62,422 nucleotides of DNA from a virus (IMGVR_UViG_3300026167_000001:1-62422); one strand, 5' to 3'. Counted from the first letter of the stretch, positions 3,585 through 27,450 are shown. The notes: a model not told the origin generated them from the sequence alone. Made by a program: numbers and translations.

Positions 3585-4793
3585 ATGGAATCAAAAAAAT
3601 TAGAATTTGATGAAACTTTATGGGAAGAAATATTAAAAACATCTAAATTCTTTGAAGATAAGAATAAAAAATTAACAGCAGCTTATCTAAAAAGACAGTT
3701 CCCATTTTTATCAGAACGTCATGCAGCATGTTATATATTTGCACTTAATAATAAAGATGCTATTGTACCAGATTGGTCAGTTAAAAATAATATTTCTGCA
3801 ATAAAAACAGATTTATATACAGAAAGAAAACGTGTAAAAGGTTTATTACAAGAAATAAATTTAGCTGATCAAAGATTAAGCTATATGTTTGCCTTAAATC
3901 ACACAAAAGGTTTACAGGAATCTATTAAAGTAACAGCAGATCCTGAAATGAAGTCAGAAAGTACTGCAATCGCTTTATGTGGAGATGTACATGCTGAAGA
4001 AACAGTCAAAAAAGAAGTAATGGATGGACTAAATGAATACAATTTAGAAACATTCATAAAAAGATTTACAAGATATTTTTCAAGACTTCTTTATGTAATA
4101 CGAATGCAACGTAAAGCAGAACATGAAATTAATAATTTGGTATTAACCTTTTTAGGGGATTTAATAACAGGTTATATTCATGAAGAATTAATGGAAAATA
4201 ACTCCCTGTCACCAACAGAAGCTGCTAACATATTATTAGATTTAATGACATCTGGTATTAAATTGTTAGCTAATGAAGGCGCTTTTAAAAAAATAATTAT
4301 CGTAGGAATACGAGGTAATCATGGTAGAACAAGTCATAGGAAAAAATTCGCAACCGGCTACAAAAATTCTTATGAATGGTTAATGTATAAAAGGTTAGAG
4401 AAAACCTTTAAAGATCATTTAACTGGATATGAAAATATCGAGTTTGTAATTCCTAAATCAGAATTTGCCTACATAGATATATATGATAAAAAATGGGGAT
4501 TTTCTCATGGAGACCATTTTAATTATATGGGAGGAATTGGAGGAGTTATGGTACCGCTTATGCGTTGGTTATCAAAAATTAATGATGTAATTGATGCAGA
4601 TATGAGAGGTATAGGTCATTGGCATTCATATATATCTCTACCAAAATGCCTTGTAAACGGTTCTATGATTGGTTATGCGCCATATGCTTTAGGTAAAGCA
4701 TTTGCACCAGAAGAACCTAAGATGCAATTACAACTACAAGATAAGAAACTTGGATTTACTGTCAATATACCAATATTACTTGAAGACTTTTAA
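3585..4793 (+). CDS. calcineurin-like metallophosphoesterase with N-terminal helical/coiled-coil region
   Basis: motifs GDVH, GDLI, GNHG, HGDH and GHWH in canonical order. Confidence 0.85.
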   Translation: MESKKLEFDETLWEEILKTSKFFEDKNKKLTAAYLKRQFPFLSERHAACYIFALNNKDAIVPDWSVKNNISAIKTDLYTERKRVKGLLQEINLADQRLSYMFALNHTKGLQESIKVTADPEMKSESTAIALCGDVHAEETVKKEVMDGLNEYNLETFIKRFTRYFSRLLYVIRMQRKAEHEINNLVLTFLGDLITGYIHEELMENNSLSPTEAANILLDLMTSGIKLLANEGAFKKIIIVGIRGNHGRTSHRKKFATGYKNSYEWLMYKRLEKTFKDHLTGYENIEFVIPKSEFAYIDIYDKKWGFSHGDHFNYMGGIGGVMVPLMRWLSKINDVIDADMRGIGHWHSYISLPKCLVNGSMIGYAPYALGKAFAPEEPKMQLQLQDKKLGFTVNIPILLEDF

Positions 4794-4797
4794 AATT

Positions 4798-4858
4798 TAA
4801 TCACTCTGTTATTAATACATTGTTAGGGACGCGGGTTCGATTCCCGCCGCCTCCACTA
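4798..4858 (+). ncRNA. ssrA: acceptor (3') piece of circularly permuted tmRNA
   Basis: ggacgcgggttcgattcccgccgcctccA is the canonical tmRNA 3' end; taatcactc and gttattaata pair with gagtgatta and tattaataac in the coding piece. Confidence 0.85.
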
Positions 4859-4864
4859 TTATAC

Positions 4865-4942
4865 ACACTTATACGTCTCAGAAGAGCATAGGAGCGACGG
4901 GCTGATAAACCGTGGTCGTTGGTTCAAGTCCAACTAAGTGTG
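4865..4942 (+). tRNA. tRNA-Ile(GAT)-like gene nested in the tmRNA intervening segment
   Basis: acactta/taagtgt acceptor; acggg-ctGATaa-accgt anticodon arm; gttgg-ttcaagt-ccaac T-arm; atypical enlarged D-arm and G discriminator. Confidence 0.7.
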
Positions 4943-4959
4943 TATATTTTAAAATATCA

Positions 4960-4994
4960 GTCTAACAGGATTGATTAACGATCGCCTGTTAGGC
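4960..4994 (+). ncRNA. hairpin in tmRNA intervening segment
   Basis: gtctaacagg / cctgttaggc. Confidence 0.45.
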
Positions 4995-5001
4995 AAGCCG
5001 T

Positions 5002-5125
5002 ATAATATCCTAATACTCATAAAGAGCGCCTCTTCGAGCATAAGATGTAAATTGCCCCGTTATACTATACGGATCTATAGACAGTTTTAATATTGTCCAC
5101 TAGACTTACTTTATTAGGATATTAT
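5002..5125 (+). ncRNA. multibranched RNA closed by 14-bp stem, in tmRNA intervening segment
   Basis: ataatatcctaata / tattaggatattat; inner ccgt/acgg, gaca/tgtc, tcta/taga and ctc/gag stems. Confidence 0.5.
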
Positions 5126-5130
5126 CCCAT

Positions 5131-5301
5131 GGGGGCGACCTGGTTTTGACCGATAATAATATTAATAACCGATTAGTAGTGAGTGATTATTCCTTAAACG
5201 GAAACTTTAATACACCTGTTATTCAACTTCTAAGAGAAGTTGCGTAACACGTAATCAGTACGAAAAACTGTTAGCAGGGATGTAAAAAGTCCCTGCTTTT
5301 T
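5131..5301 (+). ncRNA. ssrA: coding (5') piece of permuted tmRNA; predicted tag (A)GNFNTPVIQLLREVA*
   Basis: gggggcgacctggttttgac is the canonical 5' end; gggggcg pairs with cgcctcc (4848-4854) giving G3.U70; resume context taaac-GGA at 5200, stop 5245-5247. Confidence 0.85.
5273..5301 (+). terminator. intrinsic terminator
   Basis: agcaggga / tccctgct followed by T-run. Confidence 0.75.
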
Positions 5302-5321
5302 AACTAAAATTACAATTAACC

Positions 5322-5987
5322 ATGAATGATAAAAAAGAACCTTACATTGTATTTAATTTAAGTGAGGGCTGTTCTATTGAATTGAATAAAGCAGATAGAA
5401 AATTATTAGTGCCTGGATTAACTTCCAGTGACTTAGTATATGGACAAGCTCTATTAAGTTTACTAAAAAGACTTAATTTAGAATATAGTAAAAAATATCT
5501 GCTAACTGATGATGAAGATGCAAAAGCTAAACATCATTGGTTAACAGTCCTAATAGGAAAAATTGAAAATAAAAGAAAAGGCAGTATATCAAATAAAATG
5601 CCTAAATTAGTAAGTGCAAAATCTATTTCTAAGTATTTTGATTCATTAATAAAGGAATTTAGAAGTGAATTAAAAGAAATTAAAGAAGAACCCATAAAAT
5701 CTAAAATAGCTAATGAATTAGCACATTTAGATAATATTGAGGCTCACATACTTAATACATATGGATTCAGATTGCACGACATCTCTAAAGTAGACGAACA
5801 AGATCACCCTTATGTCTTGAATATCGTTAAAAAGAAAGTAAGGGAAATAATAGGGAATTTTAAAAAAAGTGGTGGTGAGGACAAAGATCTTACTGTAAAA
5901 AATATAATTACATATTATGTAAGAACAATACCACCTGCAGTAAATATTAAAACTTTAACAGAAATAGTTAAAGAAGAACTTAAGTAA
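5322..5987 (+). CDS. hypothetical protein
   Basis: 221 aa; caattaaccATG leader. Confidence 0.65.
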   Translation: MNDKKEPYIVFNLSEGCSIELNKADRKLLVPGLTSSDLVYGQALLSLLKRLNLEYSKKYLLTDDEDAKAKHHWLTVLIGKIENKRKGSISNKMPKLVSAKSISKYFDSLIKEFRSELKEIKEEPIKSKIANELAHLDNIEAHILNTYGFRLHDISKVDEQDHPYVLNIVKKKVREIIGNFKKSGGEDKDLTVKNIITYYVRTIPPAVNIKTLTEIVKEELK

Positions 5988-6039
5988 GTAAGGAAAAGGT
6001 GTGCTAAAATCTAATTATAACCAATTAAAAACAATAACC

Positions 6040-6972
6040 ATGGAAGACCAAAAGATTTTAAATACACCGATGTTACTAACAGCTATTGTAGAGCTGCTGA
6101 ATCTACAACAAATGGAAATCTCTGAATTACGACATGAAGGTAAGGATGATGAAGCTATTACTATGAAACATCATAGAAAAGAATTGCTAAGTAAAGCAAT
6201 TGAATTAGCTTTAGAAACTGTATCTACTCATGGAGTTTGTATTCCTGTTGAACTTGATACCAAAAAACTTTCTGCAGATAAAGAAAGTTATTCAAGACAA
6301 ATAAAGGAACAATTATCAAGACTGGAAAGTAAACCAGCTAAGAAAAAATTCACTGCGGATAAAAAAACTAAAATTCCAGCAACAGAACGCTCTTATTCAA
6401 ATGTTTATGAACAAGATCAAGTAAAAAATAAAATGGCTACTTTTTCCATTAAGAAGAATTTACAACCTGAAGATTTACTAAAAGATGATGAGGAGTCTAC
6501 TCCATTGAGTAGATTAGTAAGGAAATCTATTTCCCATATGTTACAATTAGGAAAAAGATTAGAGGCTGTAAATTATTTAACTAATTACATATTCATTTAT
6601 ATAGGAATGACTTCAAAAGAGGCACATTCTTTAATAAATGAATTAAAAGAAAAGTTCAATATTTTTGAACTGACTAAATTGAAGCCAGTAAACAAAAAAA
6701 GAGCGGTACCAAAAGGAAAAATAGTTTTTGCCGAAGTAAATACTTTTAAAAGTAAAGAACCTACTACAAAATATGTAATTTGGCCTGAAGACTCTAAAAA
6801 TAATAGCATATTTGACTTTGTACAAGATGAATTTATTTGCATGTCAGATAATATTATTAAATTTAGAGAAGTTAGCCAATTAGAGGAAGAAAAAGTGAAA
6901 AAACAGAGAGAAGAGTTTGTAGATAAAGTAATTGAAAAAACTAAAAAAAGGTTAAAAAACAATAAGAAGTAA
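6040..6972 (+). CDS. hypothetical protein (start moved from GTG 6001 to ATG 6040)
   Basis: taaccaattaaaaacaataaccATG leader. Confidence 0.65.
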   Translation: MEDQKILNTPMLLTAIVELLNLQQMEISELRHEGKDDEAITMKHHRKELLSKAIELALETVSTHGVCIPVELDTKKLSADKESYSRQIKEQLSRLESKPAKKKFTADKKTKIPATERSYSNVYEQDQVKNKMATFSIKKNLQPEDLLKDDEESTPLSRLVRKSISHMLQLGKRLEAVNYLTNYIFIYIGMTSKEAHSLINELKEKFNIFELTKLKPVNKKRAVPKGKIVFAEVNTFKSKEPTTKYVIWPEDSKNNSIFDFVQDEFICMSDNIIKFREVSQLEEEKVKKQREEFVDKVIEKTKKRLKNNKK

Positions 6973-6991
6973 TTAATAATATTAACCTAAT

Positions 6992-7019
6992 AAAGGCAGG
7001 GATAATTCCTTGCCTTTTT
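6992..7019 (+). terminator. intrinsic terminator
   Basis: aaaggcaggga / tccttgccttt followed by T-run. Confidence 0.75.
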
Positions 7020-7034
7020 AATTAATTAAAAGTT

Positions 7035-7529
7035 ATGAATAAGTACATACAAATTAATCAACAAATTGAAAAGTTAATTAATAGTTCTAAAAAAATTAAC
7101 ATAATTAAAAGATTGTTGCAAGAATCTGATAATTTTCAGAATCGTGTAGCTTCCATCGTTGGAATAAATGTGGCAGAAATTGGTTTATCACATTTAAAAA
7201 ACTCTTTAATTAGAAAGAAAAATGAGTACATTCACCAAGTAAATTATACGGCTAATACACTATTAGCTTTATTTAATGTGCCAGTTAAAGAATTTAATTT
7301 AAGTAATTTTGTTCTTGGTACTAAAGATTTACTTAATGGATATGCTGAAATAGAAGATTCTAAAGGTAATTTATGGGTACTCTCTTTAAATACAGGAGAA
7401 TTTATTAAAGAAAGTATACCAGAAGATGAAGAGTCTAGAGAAACATTGCCAAGCTACATTAAAGAACCATGTTCTGTACTATCAGAAAATGACGAGTATT
7501 TAATATTAATTAAATCTAACAACCAATAA
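7035..7529 (+). CDS. hypothetical protein
   Basis: 164 aa ORF. Confidence 0.6.
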   Translation: MNKYIQINQQIEKLINSSKKINIIKRLLQESDNFQNRVASIVGINVAEIGLSHLKNSLIRKKNEYIHQVNYTANTLLALFNVPVKEFNLSNFVLGTKDLLNGYAEIEDSKGNLWVLSLNTGEFIKESIPEDEESRETLPSYIKEPCSVLSENDEYLILIKSNNQ

Positions 7530-7557
7530 AAAAATTAAACTCGTTATGGTTGACAGA

Positions 7558-7641
7558 GCCGACTTGATCTAGGAATATGCATTTATTCATTTAGTGTTAT
7601 ATGCCTTGAAAGATCGTAGGGATCGTATCCCTAAGTCGGTA
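7558..7641 (+). ncRNA. tRNA mimic: acceptor stem + T-arm, one long hairpin replacing D and anticodon arms
   Basis: gccgact/agtcggt + A; taggg-atcgtat-cccta T-like arm; gatct/agatc closes a long irregular hairpin. Confidence 0.55.
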
Positions 7642-7658
7642 CAATATTACCCCCAACA

Positions 7659-7721
7659 GAATATCTAACTAGTAGTTTAGGTCCAAACTAGACTATGACG
7701 TGCCAATTTTGTTAGATATTC
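7659..7721 (+). ncRNA. candidate structured RNA closed by 11-bp stem
   Basis: gaatatctaac / gttagatattc; inner tagt-agttt / aaact-acta. Confidence 0.45.
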
Positions 7722-7729
7722 ACACAATT

Positions 7730-7879
7730 AGATGCTTATATACTTTTCAATGTAAATGCGTCTGTAAGTCCCTCGTGTAAAGCACTTGTGCATGTACACA
7801 TTAAAGAGCAAACACAGACTATATTTTTACATAAAAGTTAACAAAATTTGTCAAAATTTTTAATAACTATTAAGCATCT
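7730..7879 (+). ncRNA. 150-nt rod-like RNA with large asymmetric bulge
   Basis: nested pairs agatgctta/taagcatct, actttt/aaaagt, atgtaaa/tttacat, gtctgt/acagac. Confidence 0.5.
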
Positions 7880-7971
7880 TAGGTCGTCAGGTTTTGTTTT
7901 CACAGTACTTCCTGATTACCGGTTAACAAAGACAAATTGAAAAAAAAGAACTGTCATTTATTTCTACGCTC

Positions 7972-8140
7972 GTCACGAGAGCTACTAAGACATTCGAAAG
8001 AGTGGAATCGTGATACCCTTAAATGTAATTAATAATACAATGAGGCAGTCAGAGGGTTGGTGCTTTTTATAAGCAGTTGTATTATAATATTACATTATCT
8101 AGTGAGTAATTATTGCATGTTGTATATGCGAAATTACTTA
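7972..8140 (+). ncRNA. run of hairpins including a GAAA tetraloop stem
   Basis: gtcacga/tcgtgat enclosing cattc-gaaa-gagtg; aatgtaat/attacatt plus ataatacaa/ttgtattat; tgagtaatt/aattactta. Confidence 0.4.
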
Positions 8141-8177
8141 TCAATTATTTTTCATTTCATTTTATCAAGTAAATTAC

Positions 8178-8274
8178 TAACAGTATTACACTGTAAATTA
8201 GTACATAATTGTAATGTCTGTCTGTGTACGACTACGAAGTAGCTACAATTATGGAGAAAAAAAAAGAACTGTTA
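8178..8274 (+). ncRNA. structured RNA with A9-gaactgt 3' flank
   Basis: taacagt/actgtta closure; 10-bp inner stem cataattgta/tacaattatg. Confidence 0.45.
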
Positions 8275-8321
8275 CTTAAAAAATGAGAACAGTATTAATT
8301 AAAAAAAGTTTAAGTATTAAT

Positions 8322-8441
8322 TACTGATTGGTACTACAATCAACTATGGACTATCTTCAAGTCAGACGTTTGTAGACATAAAGATATAATAGGCCATATT
8401 GATACATATGTAACATGCTATACATAATGTACCAATCAGTA
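8322..8441 (+). ncRNA. structured RNA closed by 13-bp stem
   Basis: tactgattggtac / gtaccaatcagta; inner atcaa/ttgat, tatgg/ccata, tatctt/aagata, tatgta/tacata. Confidence 0.5.
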
Positions 8442-8455
8442 TTTTAAATCAAGTC

Positions 8456-8788
8456 ATGATGAAATATAAAGTGAACAGCATTGTAATTAATAAATCGGGT
8501 ATAATCATAGATATAACCCAAAAAAGACTAATAGGTAAGAAATTTTGGATTTTTAATAAGTACAAAACCAAAAGATTTTTTGCTTTTCGAATGTTTAGAA
8601 ACATTTCGATAAACCCTAATATATCATATACAGATTGGTTAATGATAGATAAGAATTCTGCAAATAAGAATTCAAAAGTGATTAATCCAAAGTATGTGAT
8701 AAAAAACCCCAAACTAATAAAAGTATTAAATAAAGTTTTATTAAAAACCAAATCAATAAAAAAAGTATCATGGAAAAAGGATATATAA
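8456..8788 (+). CDS. basic hypothetical protein
   Basis: 110 aa, Lys-rich. Confidence 0.5.
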   Translation: MMKYKVNSIVINKSGIIIDITQKRLIGKKFWIFNKYKTKRFFAFRMFRNISINPNISYTDWLMIDKNSANKNSKVINPKYVIKNPKLIKVLNKVLLKTKSIKKVSWKKDI

Positions 8789-9168
8789 AACCAGCCAATT
8801 TAAGTATTGGACTAGGAAAAGTTTTTATAGTGGAAGAAGAATTAGTAGATGATAGAATTTCAAGTGAATTTATTCATCATTATGCAAAAGAACTTCCATT
8901 AGATAATGGAATCGTAAGAAATCCTAAAAATGGAAATTTTATTCTCAACCCTTCTGTAGAAAAAGAAGAGGAGGATAATAATTCTTATGAAATATCTTCG
9001 GATTTTACAGGATTATTTTTAGATGAAAGAGACTGTAAAATGACTGCTTCAGCTTTAAACGACAAAGAATATAAAAAAGCTGAAAAAATGTATGATGAAT
9101 TGCTTGCTAAAGCTGATACTTTACAAGATACCATCATGAAGTTTTATAAAGACCTTAAAAAAGTCTAA
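8770..9168 (+). CDS. hypothetical protein
   Basis: 132 aa, acidic. Confidence 0.65.
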   Translation: MEKGYIKPANLSIGLGKVFIVEEELVDDRISSEFIHHYAKELPLDNGIVRNPKNGNFILNPSVEKEEEDNNSYEISSDFTGLFLDERDCKMTASALNDKEYKKAEKMYDELLAKADTLQDTIMKFYKDLKKV

Positions 9169-9195
9169 GTATTAATTTTTAAATTAAGTAAGAAA

Positions 9196-9438
9196 ATGGA
9201 CAAAAAATCTGAACCTGCAAAATTTAAAGGAATTGTAGTTTCCTACCCGGAAAAAAATGCTGGTTTTGGCTTTATTAAGCCAACAGGAGAAAATAGAGAA
9301 ATGGAAGAAATCTTTTTTCATAAAACAGCATTAGAATCCGAAGACATTACCGAAGGATGTAATGTAGAATTTCAATTAGGAAGTCACCCAAAAAACAAAA
9401 AAGGTGTTGTGGCTTTACATGTAAAATTAATAGGATAA
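9196..9438 (+). CDS. cold-shock domain (OB-fold) nucleic-acid-binding protein
   Basis: RNP1 GFGFI and RNP2 IFFHKTAL motifs, 80 aa. Confidence 0.85.
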   Translation: MDKKSEPAKFKGIVVSYPEKNAGFGFIKPTGENREMEEIFFHKTALESEDITEGCNVEFQLGSHPKNKKGVVALHVKLIG

Positions 9439-9478
9439 TACTTAAGAATAGATATTAACCAATAAAAATAACATCGAA

Positions 9479-9913
9479 ATGGACGACAAAACCAAAACTA
9501 AAAAAAATTCTTCTAATAAAAATCTCACAGACATTACACCGCTTCCTTGGAATATGAATTCAAAAATAGAGAAAGAATTAAATACCGAAAAAGGTGCAAA
9601 AGACTTAATCTCTGTTGTAGAAGAAAAAGTAAAGGAAGAAGAGAAAATTAGAAGAATTCCTATTTTAAAAGATTTTTACGATAAGTATCGTAAAGCTTTA
9701 GATGCTAATGAAAGTATAAAACCAGATTTACATCCTGGATATACTGACAAACTTATAGCCAGAGATAACGGAGAATTAATCTATAGTAAAGAAATGGCAA
9801 ATAAGAAACGAAATGCCATATCTAAAATAAACAACATGGTAAATGCCTATAACTCTTGGATTAAAACAGGAGATTGGGAAAAATTCGAAATATTTTGTAA
9901 TTCTTTAAAATAA
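9479..9913 (+). CDS. hypothetical protein
   Basis: 144 aa; ttaaccaa leader. Confidence 0.65.
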   Translation: MDDKTKTKKNSSNKNLTDITPLPWNMNSKIEKELNTEKGAKDLISVVEEKVKEEEKIRRIPILKDFYDKYRKALDANESIKPDLHPGYTDKLIARDNGELIYSKEMANKKRNAISKINNMVNAYNSWIKTGDWEKFEIFCNSLK

Positions 9914-9914
9914 G

Positions 9915-10271
9915 ATGAAATCTCAAAATTTAATAAACGTCGACGTATCTCCAGAAGAATTAATTTCTTCTATAGCTATACAGACACATATAGAAACTGT
10001 ATTAAGATTTGATAGAAATATACATGCTAAATATCATGATAAATCTGGAGATACTATTGGATGTGGATGTATTTACTGTGTAACTTTGCATAGATATTCA
10101 AATATTAAAAAACTTATACATAGAGTCAAAAATAGAATATTGGATGATAATTATATTTATCCAAAAAAAGAACTTGAAGACCTAGATAAGAATTATTTGA
10201 AAACTTTGAAAAACATATGTAAAAAAGTGAAAGCAGAGAAAGATAATTTAAAAAAACAATTAAATTTATAA
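9915..10271 (+). CDS. hypothetical protein, possible Zn site
   Basis: 118 aa; HH..CGCIYC-like cluster. Confidence 0.6.
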   Translation: MKSQNLINVDVSPEELISSIAIQTHIETVLRFDRNIHAKYHDKSGDTIGCGCIYCVTLHRYSNIKKLIHRVKNRILDDNYIYPKKELEDLDKNYLKTLKNICKKVKAEKDNLKKQLNL

Positions 10272-10450
10272 TGTCAAAACCAATAACTTTGGGTTTAAAA
10301 ACCTTTGATTTTTCACCTAAATTAGAATTTGGAGTACTAGAATATTCAACAAATTTTAATAGAATGGAAAAATCATTTGAAGCTAGAAAAACCAGAAAAA
10401 TAAGAGCTTTAAATAAAAAAGGTATTTATATAGACCCTGAATTAATTTAA
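10271..10450 (+). CDS. small hypothetical protein (59 aa, below ORF-track cutoff)
   Basis: MSKPITLGLK...IDPELI*, TAATG-coupled to the upstream stop. Confidence 0.55.
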   Translation: MSKPITLGLKTFDFSPKLEFGVLEYSTNFNRMEKSFEARKTRKIRALNKKGIYIDPELI

Positions 10451-10468
10451 CCAAAAACTATTATTGTC

Positions 10469-10876
10469 ATGAAATTAAAAATATTATTAGTAGTACTAAT
10501 ACTACTTTTTAGCACAAAATCTTATGCAGATTATGGTGCTTTAGAAAAAGATGACAATATAGAATTTGTAATTACTAAAACAAATGATTTAACTGCAGAT
10601 ATAGAGTATATTTATACTGATGTAGTTACTAATTATTTAGAAAAACCAAATTCTATAATGTCATATGTATTAAATAAAACCAATTATTTTTACAATAATC
10701 TATTAAGTAAGTTTATTATATTTAATACTAAAAAAGAAATAGTTGTATTTAATAGAAAGAATAAATACATAATTTTAAATAAAATATTAAATATTAGTGA
10801 AAATAGTAAAACAATTTATAATTATTTAATAAAGGAAATATTTGTAATAAATGTCTATGGCGGTAGATCGCCTTGA
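10469..10876 (+). CDS. secreted hypothetical protein
   Basis: signal peptide MKLKILLVVLILLFSTKSYA. Confidence 0.55.
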   Translation: MKLKILLVVLILLFSTKSYADYGALEKDDNIEFVITKTNDLTADIEYIYTDVVTNYLEKPNSIMSYVLNKTNYFYNNLLSKFIIFNTKKEIVVFNRKNKYIILNKILNISENSKTIYNYLIKEIFVINVYGGRSP

Positions 10877-14638: not shown

Positions 14639-16534
14639 ATGATAAAGTTTATTAGTAATCAAAATGTTATTAATACACCATTCACTATAAGCACTATTTC
14701 AGAATTATTAGATTATTTTGAAAATAAAGAATTAATATCTTTAGATAGTGAAACAGAAGGATATGACCCACATACTTGTAATATCATATCTTTACAATTA
14801 GGTGATCCTAATGTACAATTTGTAATAGATTACACAACTTTATCAGAAAATGAAATACAAAAAATAAAATCTCTATTAGAGTCTGGCAAGACTATAATAA
14901 TGCATAATGCTCAATTTGATTTACGTTTTTTATTAAAACAAAATATTGACGTAAAAAATATATATGATACATTTCTAGCAGAATTAGTGCTATATACTGG
15001 ATATGATTATTCAGATTCCTCTAGTAAATATTATATCGGTACTTCTTTATATAACGTTGTAAAACGATATTGTGAAAAAGAACTTGATAAAAGTATTAGA
15101 GGTAAAATACATTATCTAAGACTTAATGAATCTGTAATTAAATATGCAGCCGAAGATGTAAAATATTTAGAAGAAGTAAGAGCTAAACAATTAAAATTAA
15201 TAAAAGAAAAAAACTTAGAAAATACTTTAGAATTAGAAAATCAAGTAGTTAGAGTATTTGCTAAAATGTCTTTTGACGGAATAAAATTAGATACTAACAA
15301 ATGGGAATCAGTTTATAAAATTACTGAAACTAATGTTAAAAATCTAACTAAAGAATTGGATAATATAGTATTATCTGAACCAAAGTTGAAAAAATTTATA
15401 CCAGAAGGATTTCAACAAAATTTATTTGGATTTGAAGAAAGAAAATTAAATATTAATTGGAAATCACCTATTCAAAAGTTGGAAATATTAAATGAATTAG
15501 GTATAAATATAGATAGTGTAGGAACTCCAATATTATCTAGATTAGTAAATAAGCATACAATAATACCCAAATTATTGGAATACTCTAAACAAGTAAAATT
15601 AGCAGATGCTTTTGGAAAAAAGTTTTTAGATTTTGTTAATAATAGAACAAAAAGATTACACATATCAGTTTGGCAAATATTATCAACTGGCAGAATATCT
15701 GTCAGTAATCCTAATTTAAATCAAATACCACGTAAAGGAAATTTAGGACCGGTAATTAGATCTGCTTTTGTAGCATCCGATGGCTATAAGATAATAGGTG
15801 GAGATTACTCAAGTTTTGAATTAGCAATAATTGCTGAATTTAGTAAAGATCCTATATGGGTAAATACTCTATTAAAAGACAAAAATTTACATTCTGAATT
15901 ATGTGCTAATACATTTAATATACCTATAAAAGATATAAATAATCCATTTCCTTACAATAAAGAAATAACTTATAGGGATGTTCAAAAAACTATAGATTTT
16001 GGATTAGCATACGGCATGTCTGAATTTAAATTATCTAATACTATACAAGTTAGTGTCAATAAGGCCAAAGAAATTATAAATAGTTTCTTTAATATGGTAC
16101 CACATGTTAAGAAATTTTTAACTATGCTTGGAAATTTTGGTAAAAACAATGGATACACAAGGACAGCTAAGCCTTTTAAAAGAATAAGGCACTTTCCAGA
16201 ATGGGAAGAACTAAAAAGAAATCCTAATCATCCAGATACTTTCAAAATTTTAGGAGAAATTGAAAGAAAATCTAAGAATACACCAATTCAAGGTACTAAT
16301 GCGGATATTATAAAATTGGCATTAATTAATACTCAAAAAGAAATTGATAAAAATAATTGGCCTGTAAGGATATTATTATCGATTTACGATGAAATACAAA
16401 CTGAATGTAGGGAAGACAAAGCAGAAGAATGGAAAAATAAATTACAGGAAATTATGATAAGTACTGCTAAGACAGTACTAAAAACTGTACCCGTTAAAGC
16501 AGACTGTGATATTTCTGATTATTGGAAAAAATAA
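14639..16534 (+). CDS. polA: DNA polymerase family A with 3'-5' exonuclease
   Basis: Exo I DSET, Exo II HNAQFD, Exo III YAAED; TGR..PNL; motif A DYSSFE, motif B R...KTIDFGLAYG, motif C IYDE. Confidence 0.95.
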   Translation: MIKFISNQNVINTPFTISTISELLDYFENKELISLDSETEGYDPHTCNIISLQLGDPNVQFVIDYTTLSENEIQKIKSLLESGKTIIMHNAQFDLRFLLKQNIDVKNIYDTFLAELVLYTGYDYSDSSSKYYIGTSLYNVVKRYCEKELDKSIRGKIHYLRLNESVIKYAAEDVKYLEEVRAKQLKLIKEKNLENTLELENQVVRVFAKMSFDGIKLDTNKWESVYKITETNVKNLTKELDNIVLSEPKLKKFIPEGFQQNLFGFEERKLNINWKSPIQKLEILNELGINIDSVGTPILSRLVNKHTIIPKLLEYSKQVKLADAFGKKFLDFVNNRTKRLHISVWQILSTGRISVSNPNLNQIPRKGNLGPVIRSAFVASDGYKIIGGDYSSFELAIIAEFSKDPIWVNTLLKDKNLHSELCANTFNIPIKDINNPFPYNKEITYRDVQKTIDFGLAYGMSEFKLSNTIQVSVNKAKEIINSFFNMVPHVKKFLTMLGNFGKNNGYTRTAKPFKRIRHFPEWEELKRNPNHPDTFKILGEIERKSKNTPIQGTNADIIKLALINTQKEIDKNNWPVRILLSIYDEIQTECREDKAEEWKNKLQEIMISTAKTVLKTVPVKADCDISDYWKK

Positions 16535-16901: not shown

Positions 16902-17480
16902 ATGAGGATAGAGGTAGATACTGAGTTACTATTTAAGTATAATATAACACCTAATCAGTTCATACTAATTTACCTCATCTCAAATGAATCAAAAGTACTA
17001 AAAGACTTTATAAATCTGGTAAATAAAGATGAATTAAAAAAAGATTTAGAAGTTTTAGAAAAAGTAAATTTCATACATAATTTAAATACTGACAATAAGC
17101 TAGATTTCTCTAATATAGTAGTCAGAGATGAATTCTTAAATTTAATTAATTTAAAAGTTGATTTATTTCAAGAATTATTAGACATCTACCCTATCAAGGT
17201 AAGACGTCCTGACGGTTTTTATGATTATTTAAAAACAGATTCAGCACGCTCTAGGAAGCGATATAATCAACTTATTAGAGGGAATAGACTAAGACATCAT
17301 AAGATCATAGAAGCTTTAAAATACGAGCTTAAAATAAGGCAAAAAGAGGGTTCTATGATGTATATGAAAAGATTACCAAAGTGGTTATCTTCAAGAGAAT
17401 GGGAAGTATTTGAAGAAAGAATGAAAGACGAAGAAAAGGAAGTAGAATCAATAGGTACATATGGTACCAATATAGAATAA
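16902..17480 (+). CDS. putative replication initiator / helicase-loader-like protein
   Basis: 192 aa directly upstream of DnaB; F..L...YP.K and KW motif typical of phage replication proteins. Confidence 0.5.
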   Translation: MRIEVDTELLFKYNITPNQFILIYLISNESKVLKDFINLVNKDELKKDLEVLEKVNFIHNLNTDNKLDFSNIVVRDEFLNLINLKVDLFQELLDIYPIKVRRPDGFYDYLKTDSARSRKRYNQLIRGNRLRHHKIIEALKYELKIRQKEGSMMYMKRLPKWLSSREWEVFEERMKDEEKEVESIGTYGTNIE

Positions 17481-17485
17481 GTAAT

Positions 17486-18735
17486 ATGCTAATAACACCA
17501 TTAAAGTACAAACATATTTCAGAGCCTACTACAGAAATATTAGAGTATATTGATAGTAGGAGGAAAGGACAAATCAGATCGTTAAAAACTAAATGGAGAA
17601 AATTTAACGATCAATGTATGGGTGGTATTGAACCTAATACTATTTATACAGTAGCTGGTATATCCGGTAGTGGTGATAGAATATTTATCAATTACTTTTA
17701 GATAGGAAATATGATAAATATAAAGAATATTGCCGTATTTATGAGGAATCATAAATATAATTATTGGGCAAAAACGGTGAAGGCTGAGATGCTAATACCG
17801 TGGTAAATTTAAAGATAACGAAAGGCTTTAAATCACCGTAACGCATAGGAAATGAACAAATATAATTTTCCCACGAGTGTCCAACATCCAGAACGGATGA
17901 AAATATATGCTGAGCTTACATAAAATGAAATGTAAGAAGTATTAGATAAAAAACTAATACGGTAACAATACTGAAATCTAGCTTTGTTAATAGCTTAGAA
18001 ACAGATTTATTTGATTTAAATAATAGAGATGAATTTGTTGTACTCTCCTTTTCATTCGAAATGCTAAGTTCAAAACAAGTAGGTAGAAAATTATCTTACA
18101 AATTAGAAAAAACAACACAAGAATTATATAGTGGATATACTAATTATAAATTATCCAACGAAGATTATAAAAAAGTACAAGAAACAGCAAAAGGTATTGA
18201 AAAATATCCAATATATTATGTAGATATGCCAGGAACAGTTGACGAAATACGCCATACTATTCTGGAATTTAGTAAGGAATCTTTTGTTAAAGGTAAAAGG
18301 TTAATAATTATGTTAGATCATACATTATTAACTAAAGGTAAATCCGGAGAAGCTGAAAGAAGCATATTAGCAAACCTGCAATATATGTTTATGGAAATCA
18401 AAAAGTACGATAAAAATACCATAATTCAGCTGAGTCAAATGAATAGAGATATTGAAGCTAAGGAACGCATTGTTAATAATGCAATGCATTTTCCTATGAG
18501 GAGAGATATTTTTGGGGGTGATAGTATCTTCCAAGCTTCTGACTATTTAATAGTACTACATAGACCAGAAATGTTAGGAATAACAGAATATGGCATGAGT
18601 GCATTACCAACAAAAGATTTAGTCTACATGCATTTCCTAAAAGTAAGGGAAGGAGAACCTAAAATACTTGTATTCAAAAACAACCTTAGGTATAACAGAA
18701 TTGATGAGCATGAATTAAATTCTGTTAATAAATAA
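17486..18735 (+). CDS. dnaB: DnaB-like (SF4) replicative helicase; exons 17486-17674 and 17974-18735 (316 aa spliced)
   Basis: joining the exons restores Walker A GISGSG|KSS in frame; FSFEM, IMLDH and LSQMNR SF4 motifs. Confidence 0.9.
17675..17973 (+). mobile_element. group I self-splicing intron (299 nt, no homing endonuclease)
   Basis: exon ends in U, intron ends in G; P1 ggt|gata / tattgcc with U.G at the splice site; P3 ttgggca/tgtccaa; P7 gcata/tatgc; P8 and P9 hairpins. Confidence 0.9.
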
Positions 18736-26972: not shown

Positions 26973-27174
26973 TAAAAATAACTCTACAAAACACATTAAA
27001 TAAACAGACATGAATAGCTTATTAAGATTCACGATGTAAAGTACTAAGATATATACGCCTTAGTTGAAGTTTATAAAGAAAGCTGTTAGGTATACTGTAA
27101 GATGAAAAAGGGTTTATAGTAGTCTTACTTAATACGAAAGTGCAAACCAGAAACCCTGAGTAGAGTTATTTTTA
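26973..27174 (+). ncRNA. ~200-nt pseudoknotted candidate ncRNA closed by 15-bp stem
   Basis: taaaaataactctac/gtagagttattttta; taaac/gttta, actaag/cttagt, gtaaga/tcttac with loop agggttt pairing downstream aaaccct; tac-gaaa-gtg. Confidence 0.6.
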
Positions 27175-27182
27175 AAACATTA

Positions 27183-27286
27183 ATGCAAGACTATTCCTGA
27201 ATCCTCAGACAGTTGAGGTAGTTGTCGAAAGACAAAGCAACTGCTCCCACCAATGACAGGATGAAAAGGAGCATGATGTCTTGCAT
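27183..27286 (+). ncRNA. ~100-nt pseudoknotted candidate ncRNA closed by 9-bp stem
   Basis: atgcaagac/gtcttgcat; cctca/tgagg; ttgtc-gaaa-gacaa; tgctcc/ggagca whose loop cagga pairs upstream tcctg. Confidence 0.6.
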
Positions 27287-27333
27287 AAAATATTGGTTTG
27301 GTTAAGTTAAGTTGGTTAATTAGAAAGCCCACC

Positions 27334-27420
27334 GAGGGTAGGTAATATCATAAATTATAATATCCTTCCATAATAGTGTCAATTTGTTTTGTCCATTCAA
27401 ATTGATACTTTCCTACCCTC
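27334..27420 (+). ncRNA. structured element closed by 9-bp stem
   Basis: gagggtagg/cctaccctc; inner agtgtcaatttg/caaattgatact. Confidence 0.45.
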
Positions 27421-27450
27421 ACCTTTTTAACCTTATTAAAACAAAAATAA

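Follow-up and report, generated by a model that had tools for sequence, protein, structure and literature searches.

The question raised by positions 7530-8455 of IMGVR_UViG_3300026167_000001 is what a gene-dense phage keeps in 0.9 kb of sequence between two genes. The window, meaning the whole stretch of DNA analysed, is an IMG/VR virus record of 62,422 base pairs (bp), 58% complete by estimate, AT-rich at 28% G+C and densely packed with genes; the island in question is flanked by a 164-amino acid (aa) open reading frame (ORF) at 7035-7529 and a 110-aa ORF at 8456-8788, both on the + strand. A preliminary description, made from the sequence alone, had proposed a small-RNA operon or one large non-coding RNA. 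The island is read here as a putative structured non-coding RNA locus on the + strand, the strand of all neighbouring genes, with a probability of roughly 0.7. The part of this reading that is well supported, by comparison with a divergent relative, concerns 7558-7920, which contains four autonomous + strand stem-loop domains under selection, their pairing kept while about 30% of positions changed.

The earlier statement that the stretch has no credible ORF held. Under genetic code 11 the only ORFs of at least 30 aa inside the island are of 30, 31 and 61 aa, two of them starting with TTG. Alternative genetic codes were tried and rejected: no credible frame opens when TAG is read as glutamine or TGA as tryptophan, and reading TAA as glutamine gives at most 101 aa with recoded stops. 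In the equivalent segment of the relative, contig L017, the largest ORF is no longer than 47 aa. Insertions and deletions of 1, 2, 5 and 6 nucleotides (nt), some in A-runs, separate the island from L017 or from strain variants, and the occurrence of lengths that are not multiples of three, together with the variation of A-run length among strains, argues that the island is not coding.

L017 is a metagenome contig of 1,302 nt and was the sole match of a metagenome scan anchored on the upstream ORF. Its copy of that ORF is 67% identical in protein (110/164), 72.8% in DNA and 64% at third codon positions, and the 445 nt beyond it align throughout to 7530-7972, at about which point the contig ends. 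For 7545-7972, the + strand consensus of the two sequences (RNAalifold) has 112 pairs at -77.1 kcal/mol. None of these is broken: 81 are unchanged, 12 carry a change on one side (all via G-U) and 19 on both. Shuffling alignment columns within conservation class (n=100) gave -30.0 ± 4.6 kcal/mol (minimum -41.5) and 6.1 ± 2.4 compensations (maximum 16), and a second set (n=60) gave -31.1 ± 5.0 and 6.1 ± 2.2 (maximum 13). On the minus strand the consensus was -47.8 kcal/mol with 73 pairs and 8 compensations, so that the z-scores for energy and compensations were -9.1 and +5.9 on the + strand against -3.3 and +0.9 on the other; across the shuffle sets the + strand values ranged from -9 to -10 and from +5 to +6. 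Sliding the 3' partners by 1-3 columns left 0-2 compensations, with 36-47% of cells paired.

The control that matters most is the comparison with coding DNA, because neighbouring coding windows fold as stably as the island by z-score. In two adjacent coding stretches of equal divergence (0.69-0.70 identity), the energy z-scores were -0.6 and +0.2 and the compensations equalled those of shuffles. For 7545-7972, in an alignment of two sequences, compensatory change beyond both shuffled and coding controls was therefore found, and the view that the island is structured RNA and not coding DNA is upheld for that segment, on strand-specific covariation that is absent from the adjacent coding DNA. 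A scan of all column pairs returned four helices with at least five contiguous pairs and at least two compensations, all inside local hairpins, and no long-range helix or pseudoknot candidate with at least two compensations. Of the 19 both-side changes, 17 sit in the first three units (7558-7879). The features of the left part are given below, with z-scores of single units calculated on the + strand from 200 dinucleotide shuffles each.

7462-7566, + strand: conserved junction, spanning the 3' end of the 164-aa ORF with its stop codon (7527-7529) and running 37 nt into the island.
7558-7641, + strand: domain 1, a three-way junction of 84 nt; 29 pairs, 7 changed on both sides, 5 on one side via G-U, 0 broken; z -3.57.
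7558-7565/7633-7640 and 7618-7623/7627-7632, + strand: closing helix and short hairpin of domain 1.
7566-7570/7611-7615, 7571-7577/7600-7606 and 7580-7583/7593-7596, + strand: long arm of domain 1.
7659-7721, + strand: domain 2, a bulged hairpin of 63 nt; 19 pairs, 4 changed on both sides; z -4.65.
7660-7669/7711-7720 and 7672-7680/7688-7696, + strand: closing helix and inner hairpin of domain 2.
7730-7879, + strand: domain 3, a branched hairpin of 150 nt; 43 pairs, 7 changed on both sides; z -2.81.
7730-7737/7872-7879 and 7843-7849/7855-7861, + strand: invariant closing helix and small hairpin of domain 3.
7742-7756/7826-7838, 7760-7765/7814-7819, 7772-7778/7798-7808 and 7782-7784/7793-7795, + strand: long interrupted hairpin of domain 3.
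7882-7920, + strand: domain 4, a hairpin of 39 nt with stem 7882-7891/7911-7920 and apical stem 7894-7897/7902-7905; z -2.84 for 7880-7925.
7940-7960, + strand: A-rich repeat, copy 1, AAAAAAAAGAACTGT(C/T)A(T/C)TTA, kept in L017 with an A-run of varying length.

The junction shows the highest conservation of the whole 1.3-kb alignment, with a 50-column sliding identity of 0.90-0.98 against 0.52-0.86 elsewhere, and 7529-7566 are identical in the window and L017. This is partly because the C-terminus of the 164-aa protein is conserved too; the junction is nonetheless a candidate promoter, leader or recognition site. The window contains no repeats of its leader motif elsewhere, a search allowing 3 mismatches giving 18 matches where 19.3 were expected. 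Several loop and bulge sequences of the domains are invariant in L017. In domain 2, whose inner hairpin is one of the four helices singled out by the column-pair scan and whose G-U pairs exist on the + strand only, these are the 7-nt loop GUCCAAA and the 3' bulge UAUGACGUGCC. In domain 3 the invariant stretch is UGUAAGUCCCUCGU (7763-7776), of which 7766-7771, in its 5' part, form an unpaired internal loop and the rest lies in helices (12, 13/14). Domain 4 is near-invariant in sequence, and its 13 pairs say nothing for or against pairing because they never vary. The linkers between domains are short and variable in both length and sequence.

Beyond domain 4, the A-rich motif recurs at 8258-8278 as a direct repeat (D2) of 21 nt and 90% identity; the window has the 12-mer core of the AAAAAAAAGAACTGT motif at 7942, at 8260 and nowhere else, L017 has it once, and a 1-nt deletion at 7940 is found in strains. 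A tandem duplication of ~315 nt, suggested by the spacings of two repeats, was rejected, as the halves do not align convincingly apart from the A-rich motif. No k-mer enrichment in the island survived multiple testing.

Single-sequence folding gave a more ambiguous picture. The whole island folds at -215.5 kcal/mol on the + strand (z -6.55) and -207.5 on the minus strand (z -4.40; 20 shuffles each). Nine back-to-back folded units had been described, of which six are at z of -2.8 or below (7558-7641, 7659-7721, 7730-7879, 8022-8096, 8103-8140 and 8322-8441) and one, 7972-8014, at -2.22; the other two, 7902-7954 (z -0.19) and 8178-8274 (z -1.05), are at chance level. The former had been misdrawn, the conserved hairpin at that place being domain 4. 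Perfect inverted repeats of at least 9 nt number 5 in the island against a mean of 1.7 per 926 nt, a roughly threefold excess matched by 7% of windows. In 150-nt windows over the first 30 kb, the mean z was -1.1 (standard deviation 1.4), with 60 of 398 under -2.5. At the 926-nt scale, where 12 windows were compared, the island scored -7.7, and four of the 11 others, the coding windows from 5400, 6100, 8800 and 9800, scored -6.9, -6.0, -5.2 and -8.7. What does set the island apart by single sequence is its lack of ORFs and the raised G+C of its left part (0.335-0.343 in 7401-8000 against about 0.24-0.29 in the flanks); a similar rise is seen at the tmRNA (transfer-messenger RNA) gene of the same phage. 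Fold z-scores alone are consequently misleading in this genome, and only comparative analysis tells the island from coding DNA.

The excess of stability is also regional. Measured over 926 nt, coding windows in 5400-10700 gain 34-49 kcal/mol in stability over dinucleotide shuffles (z -5 to -9), as opposed to 8-26 elsewhere, and the two coding stretches of this region that were tested by comparison have no conserved structure.

These observations bear on whether the island has any function at all, its hairpins being chance products of AT-rich DNA or the remains of a decaying gene or mobile insertion. Stability z-scores of similar size are common in the genome, two of the nine units are at chance, the region from the exonuclease gene to the homologue of ORF 16902-17480 is highly variable among relatives, and the right half of the island is, by the substitutions listed, the most variable among strains. 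For the left half, this explanation is already contradicted by the 19 compensated pairs with none broken, at an energy z-score of about -9 to -10 and with coding controls devoid of signal. At least one relative has the same neighbouring genes, at 67% identity in protein, and no protein-like frame is retained. Absence of function is therefore considered very unlikely.

The right half (7972-8455) is a different matter. There is no divergent homologue for it, because L017 ends at about 7972, and its features are as follows.

7972-8014, + strand: predicted hairpin, thermodynamics only; z -2.22; -11.3 (+) and -5.0 (-) kcal/mol.
8022-8096, + strand: predicted hairpin, thermodynamics only; z -3.37; -18.0 (+) and -12.6 (-) kcal/mol.
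8103-8140, + strand: predicted hairpin, thermodynamics only; z -5.22; -13.2 (+) and -6.6 (-) kcal/mol.
8204-8213/8244-8253, no strand assigned: perfect inverted repeat of 10 bp, inside the chance-level unit 8178-8274.
8258-8278, + strand: A-rich repeat, copy 2, the same motif as at 7940-7960.
8322-8334/8429-8441, no strand assigned: perfect inverted repeat of 13 bp with a branched fold, ending 14 nt before the ATG at 8456.

The first three hairpins fold clearly better on the + strand, and the third, with the T-rich tail at 8141-8165, could act as a weak terminator. Runs X5, X6 and X12 contain strains that diverge by about 1-2%. Their variants include the change G8242A, which lies inside 8204-8253 and breaks a predicted pair, and deletions of 2 nt at 8257 and at 8278; the X5 contigs break and branch at 8187-8309. 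The strain differences in 6500-9500 are nearly all transitions (40/40 in X5, 47/48 in X6 and 13/13 in X12), a bias of unusual extremity, whereas the more distant L017 differs by many transversions. The last unit, 8322-8441, has z-scores of -4.59 (+) and -4.84 (-), at -33.9 and -38.5 kcal/mol respectively, contains a sigma-70-like match (8399-8428) and could be a 5' untranslated region structure or a DNA-level operator. A 21-nt repeat, 20/21 identical, links 8302-8322 with 9157-9177, just upstream of a cold-shock-domain gene (9196-9438), and may be a shared promoter or leader motif.

That part of the island, chiefly the AT-rich 8060-8455, is instead a replication origin or promoter/operator, whose inverted repeats and A-tracts act as DNA, would fit its location in the replication-gene module, between the exonuclease and DNA polymerase genes. 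It would also fit the baseline G+C of the right half (0.27-0.29), its A8-A9 runs, the 10- and 13-bp inverted repeats, the sigma-70-like match, the slightly better minus-strand fold of 8322-8441 and the recurrence of the 21-nt repeat just upstream of the gene at 9196. There is no iteron family, only short two-copy repeats, with no repeat family of more than two copies, and no inflection of the cumulative GC skew at the island. The promoter-like matches in 4500-9500 number 21, fewer than the shuffle mean of 27.6. The Bacteroidota-type -7 promoter motif has the consensus TAnnTTTG, and it is not enriched between genes: intergenic DNA makes up 15% of the sequence and contains 3 of the 18 sites, and the island has none. 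Pairing in the left half, moreover, is specific to one strand and makes use of G-U pairs, whose counterparts on the opposite strand would be A-C mismatches. A DNA-level element is on this evidence distinctly unlikely as the explanation, and the right half is probably a mix, in which the RNA may continue alongside the regulatory region and 5' leader of the next gene.

The phage is treated as environmental and distantly crAss-like for two reasons. Its polymerase, searched against 50,697 phage records, is closest to crAss-like phages, with 28-29% identity, and near-identical DNA turns up in metagenome runs from soil, sediment and brine. The first ~29 kb of the window carry their genes on the + strand and the remainder on the - strand; these genes encode an exonuclease (3585-4793), a family A DNA polymerase (14639-16534) and virion proteins including a 4,282-aa ORF. 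Pfam and PHROGs gave no family for either ORF flanking the island, and an AlphaFold model of the upstream protein, built from 6 sequences with a predicted local distance difference test score of 78, matched no PDB fold at E <= 0.001 and came closest at E 0.19. Both proteins are rare: in a set of 5.8 billion, the upstream ORF has 6 clusters, with homologues at 88%, 65%, 63% and 56% among them, and the downstream ORF has 3. The stop of the former is conserved across 6 homologues and the start of the latter across 3.

At 4808-5247 on the + strand, 2.3 kb upstream of the island, the phage has a two-piece (permuted) tmRNA gene, which scores 61.5 bits with the Rfam model tmRNA_permuted against a gathering threshold of 47. 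It consists of a canonical T-arm/acceptor piece, the GGGGGCGA... coding piece and an intervening segment of ~300 nt; ARAGORN reported 0 tRNA or tmRNA genes in the whole window and so missed it. The terminator-like hairpin that follows it (5273-5297) was the sole such site in a consensus scan of 4500-9500, which found no terminator in the island and was not exhaustive, having also missed an intrinsic-terminator-like hairpin at 6995-7022 (GGCAGGG...CCTTGCC with a T-run) between a 323-aa ORF and the 164-aa ORF. The latter hairpin is conserved in L017 (about 323-352), with a change from G-U to A-U between the window and L017.

This arrangement raises the possibility that the island is a cis-acting structure of the messenger RNA, a long intercistronic spacer whose hairpins serve as processing sites, stability barriers or translational or antitermination controls of the flanking genes, with no free RNA produced. 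The island is on the strand of its neighbours, between two small conserved ORFs, with no internal terminator-like site in the consensus scan, its last hairpin ends 14 nt before the next start codon, and conservation peaks exactly at the stop codon of the upstream gene; stability above that of shuffles is also seen in the coding windows at 5.4-10.7 kb, as if the whole transcript were structure-rich. The same coding DNA has, however, no conserved structure in the comparative test where it adjoins the island, and the covarying domains are more than 500 nt from the downstream start codon. The RNase III sites in the early messenger RNA of phage T7 each consist of one intergenic hairpin, about 60 nt long. 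The island resembles these in having conserved hairpins between genes of a polycistronic phage transcript, but differs in having at least four domains over about 360 nt, ~480 nt more of predicted structure and invariant loops, and a conserved multi-domain structure of 400-900 nt with such loops would far exceed known processing or stabiliser needs. A purely cis-acting role is accordingly judged unlikely.

Comparison with known RNA families returned none for the island, in Rfam cmscan searches of the whole window at gathering threshold and of 7300-8700 and L017 at E <= 10. The covariance models of GOLLD and ROOL, large RNAs with which the preliminary description had compared the island in scale while seeing no similarity by eye, had no match in the window, in 7300-8700 at E <= 10 or in L017. 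There was likewise no match within 7300-8700 to tRNA or tmRNA models. The noise at E <= 10 in the island and L017 consisted of LhrC, mir-255, ceN70, MIR9560, minus-strand group I, snoRNA and plastid models.

The group I match at 7794-7943 (minus strand, 11.4 bits, E 8.3) was the only one of its kind, and Rfam appears insensitive in this phage, so that a self-splicing intron or another known ribozyme class might have been missed in so divergent a genome. As a group I intron the island was rejected: the flanking ORFs are complete genes with conserved stop and start, leaving no exons to join, the weak match is on the wrong strand, and no long-range helices of the P3/P7 type are supported. Neither Intron_gpII nor group-II-D1D4 matched 7300-8700 or L017 at E <= 10. 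A missed intron or known ribozyme is hence extremely unlikely.

The insensitivity of Rfam is illustrated elsewhere in the window, where the Walker A motif (GISGSG|KS) of a helicase-like gene, intact in relatives, is interrupted by a 299-nt insertion (17675-17973, + strand). Exon 1 ends at 17674 and exon 2 occupies 17974-18735, and the only Rfam match is to Intron_gpI (17727-17914) at 15.1 bits and E 0.2; the insertion is probably a small group I intron. The ORF-free gap upstream of 18061 had been considered as a conserved non-coding element or RNA gene and was rejected as such, being exon plus intron of the split gene.

Searches for further relatives were similarly restricted in outcome. In distant mode, blastn of 7400-8600 against the 50,697 phage records gave no match. 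Fifteen IMG/VR loci (L002-L016) share the exonuclease at 31-54% identity and lack the ~4.8-16.9 kb of the window except the polymerase; against these, blastn of the island found nothing above chance, and its conserved motifs were absent bar chance near-matches. Three DNA patterns searched over IMG/VR gave 0 matches each, and the 3 matches of one pattern in prokaryotic genome contigs were dismissed as chance, as none scores at the site and the best score, 8 bits (E 1.8), is elsewhere. A covariance model of domains 1-2 (R1) recovered from 13 sources only its two training sequences and one match at E 2.9, and matched 0 of 5 whole viral records of relatives. IMG/VR scans anchored on the proteins of ORFs 7035, 8770 and 8456 yielded no relatives. 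A keyword search of open-access text found nothing linking crAss-like phages to GOLLD, ROOL or such structured non-coding regions.

Two other non-coding stretches were noted among these genomes. Loci L005 (781-1500) and L007 (1-690) have in common a different region of ~700 nt that lacks ORFs and has no sequence relationship to the island of the window. Its consensus energy is -100 (+) or -98 (-) against -47 ± 5 for column shuffles, with 21 compensated pairs against 10 ± 3 (maximum 20); it is a candidate second large structured island of this phage group, on one strand or the other. Within the ORF-free gap 26973-27450 of the window, 83 nt at 27103-27183 are 77% identical to L003 5220-5300, also an ORF-free gap, and possibly represent a further conserved non-coding element.

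In Weinberg et al. (2017, PMC5737381), ROOL and GOLLD are described as multi-stem RNAs of several hundred nt and of unknown function, often found in phages or prophages near tRNA-type genes, and ROOL is rich in junctions and pseudoknots. The island resembles both in scale, in its phage setting and in having a tRNA-type neighbour, the tmRNA gene. It differs from both in matching neither covariance model and in its occurrence in a narrow phage clade, theirs spanning several phyla, and from ROOL, as so described, in supporting one three-way junction and local hairpins in series, with no pseudoknot candidate or long-range helix. The earlier comparison is thus borne out for scale and phage setting only: the island is a putative new structured-RNA locus, unrelated in sequence to GOLLD and ROOL.

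A resemblance to the clusters of small stable RNAs of phages (tRNA arrays, tmRNA) lies in the serial independent modules, the gene strand, the raised G+C and the tmRNA of the same phage; it ends at the level of known genes, ARAGORN having found none and the Rfam tRNA model having no match to the island. Domain 1, as read from the sequence, recalls a tRNA in its acceptor-like closing helix and T-arm-like hairpin, and departs from one in a loop of 3-5 nt and the lack of CCA.

Several observations weigh against reading the island as a structured RNA locus. Only two divergent sequences underlie the covariation, and they are also the ones from which the consensus structure was built. The island is 74% identical in aligned columns against 72.8% in the gene, and so is overall no more conserved than coding DNA, and it is not set apart from neighbouring genes by single-sequence stability. 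For the right 480 nt, evidence is limited to thermodynamics and strain-level variation, and among the substitutions listed 11 fall in the 484 nt of the right half and 6 in the 442 nt of the left; of these 17, 8 are unpaired in the + strand fold, 6 keep their pair and 2-3 break it, which decides nothing. No promoter, 5' end or 3' end has been identified for an island RNA, and there was neither a match to a known family nor a member outside a narrow clade in the searches made.

If the island is a structured RNA locus, a possible mechanism is that the RNA would be transcribed as part of a rightward unit starting after the conserved terminator at 6995-7022 or, alternatively, from a promoter in the ultra-conserved junction 7462-7566, and would fold domain by domain during transcription. 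Such a modular string of domains fits the finding that the supported helices are all local. The RNA may then act in trans, whole or after endonucleolytic release of domains, with the invariant loops (GUCCAAA, UAUGACGUGCC and the internal loop in UGUAAGUCCCUCGU) as putative recognition surfaces for a protein or RNA partner. A more far-reaching proposal, tentative and rather unlikely, is that all 0.9 kb of the island form one large RNA with many domains, of a new class found only in environmental crAss-like phages. Such RNAs would be recurrent and fast-evolving in the group, given the different island of comparable size in L005 and L007, and the one described here would be one that is expressed beside a tmRNA and a cold-shock-domain RNA chaperone and acts on host translation or RNA surveillance, or as a decoy against RNA-sensing defence.

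Few families of large structured phage RNAs are known, GOLLD and ROOL still lack a known function, and the island would add one to their number. If these loci are confirmed, they would indicate that compact phage genomes spend about 1% of their length on fast-evolving RNA machines, and structural and binding studies would gain small domains that are easy to handle and covary clearly.

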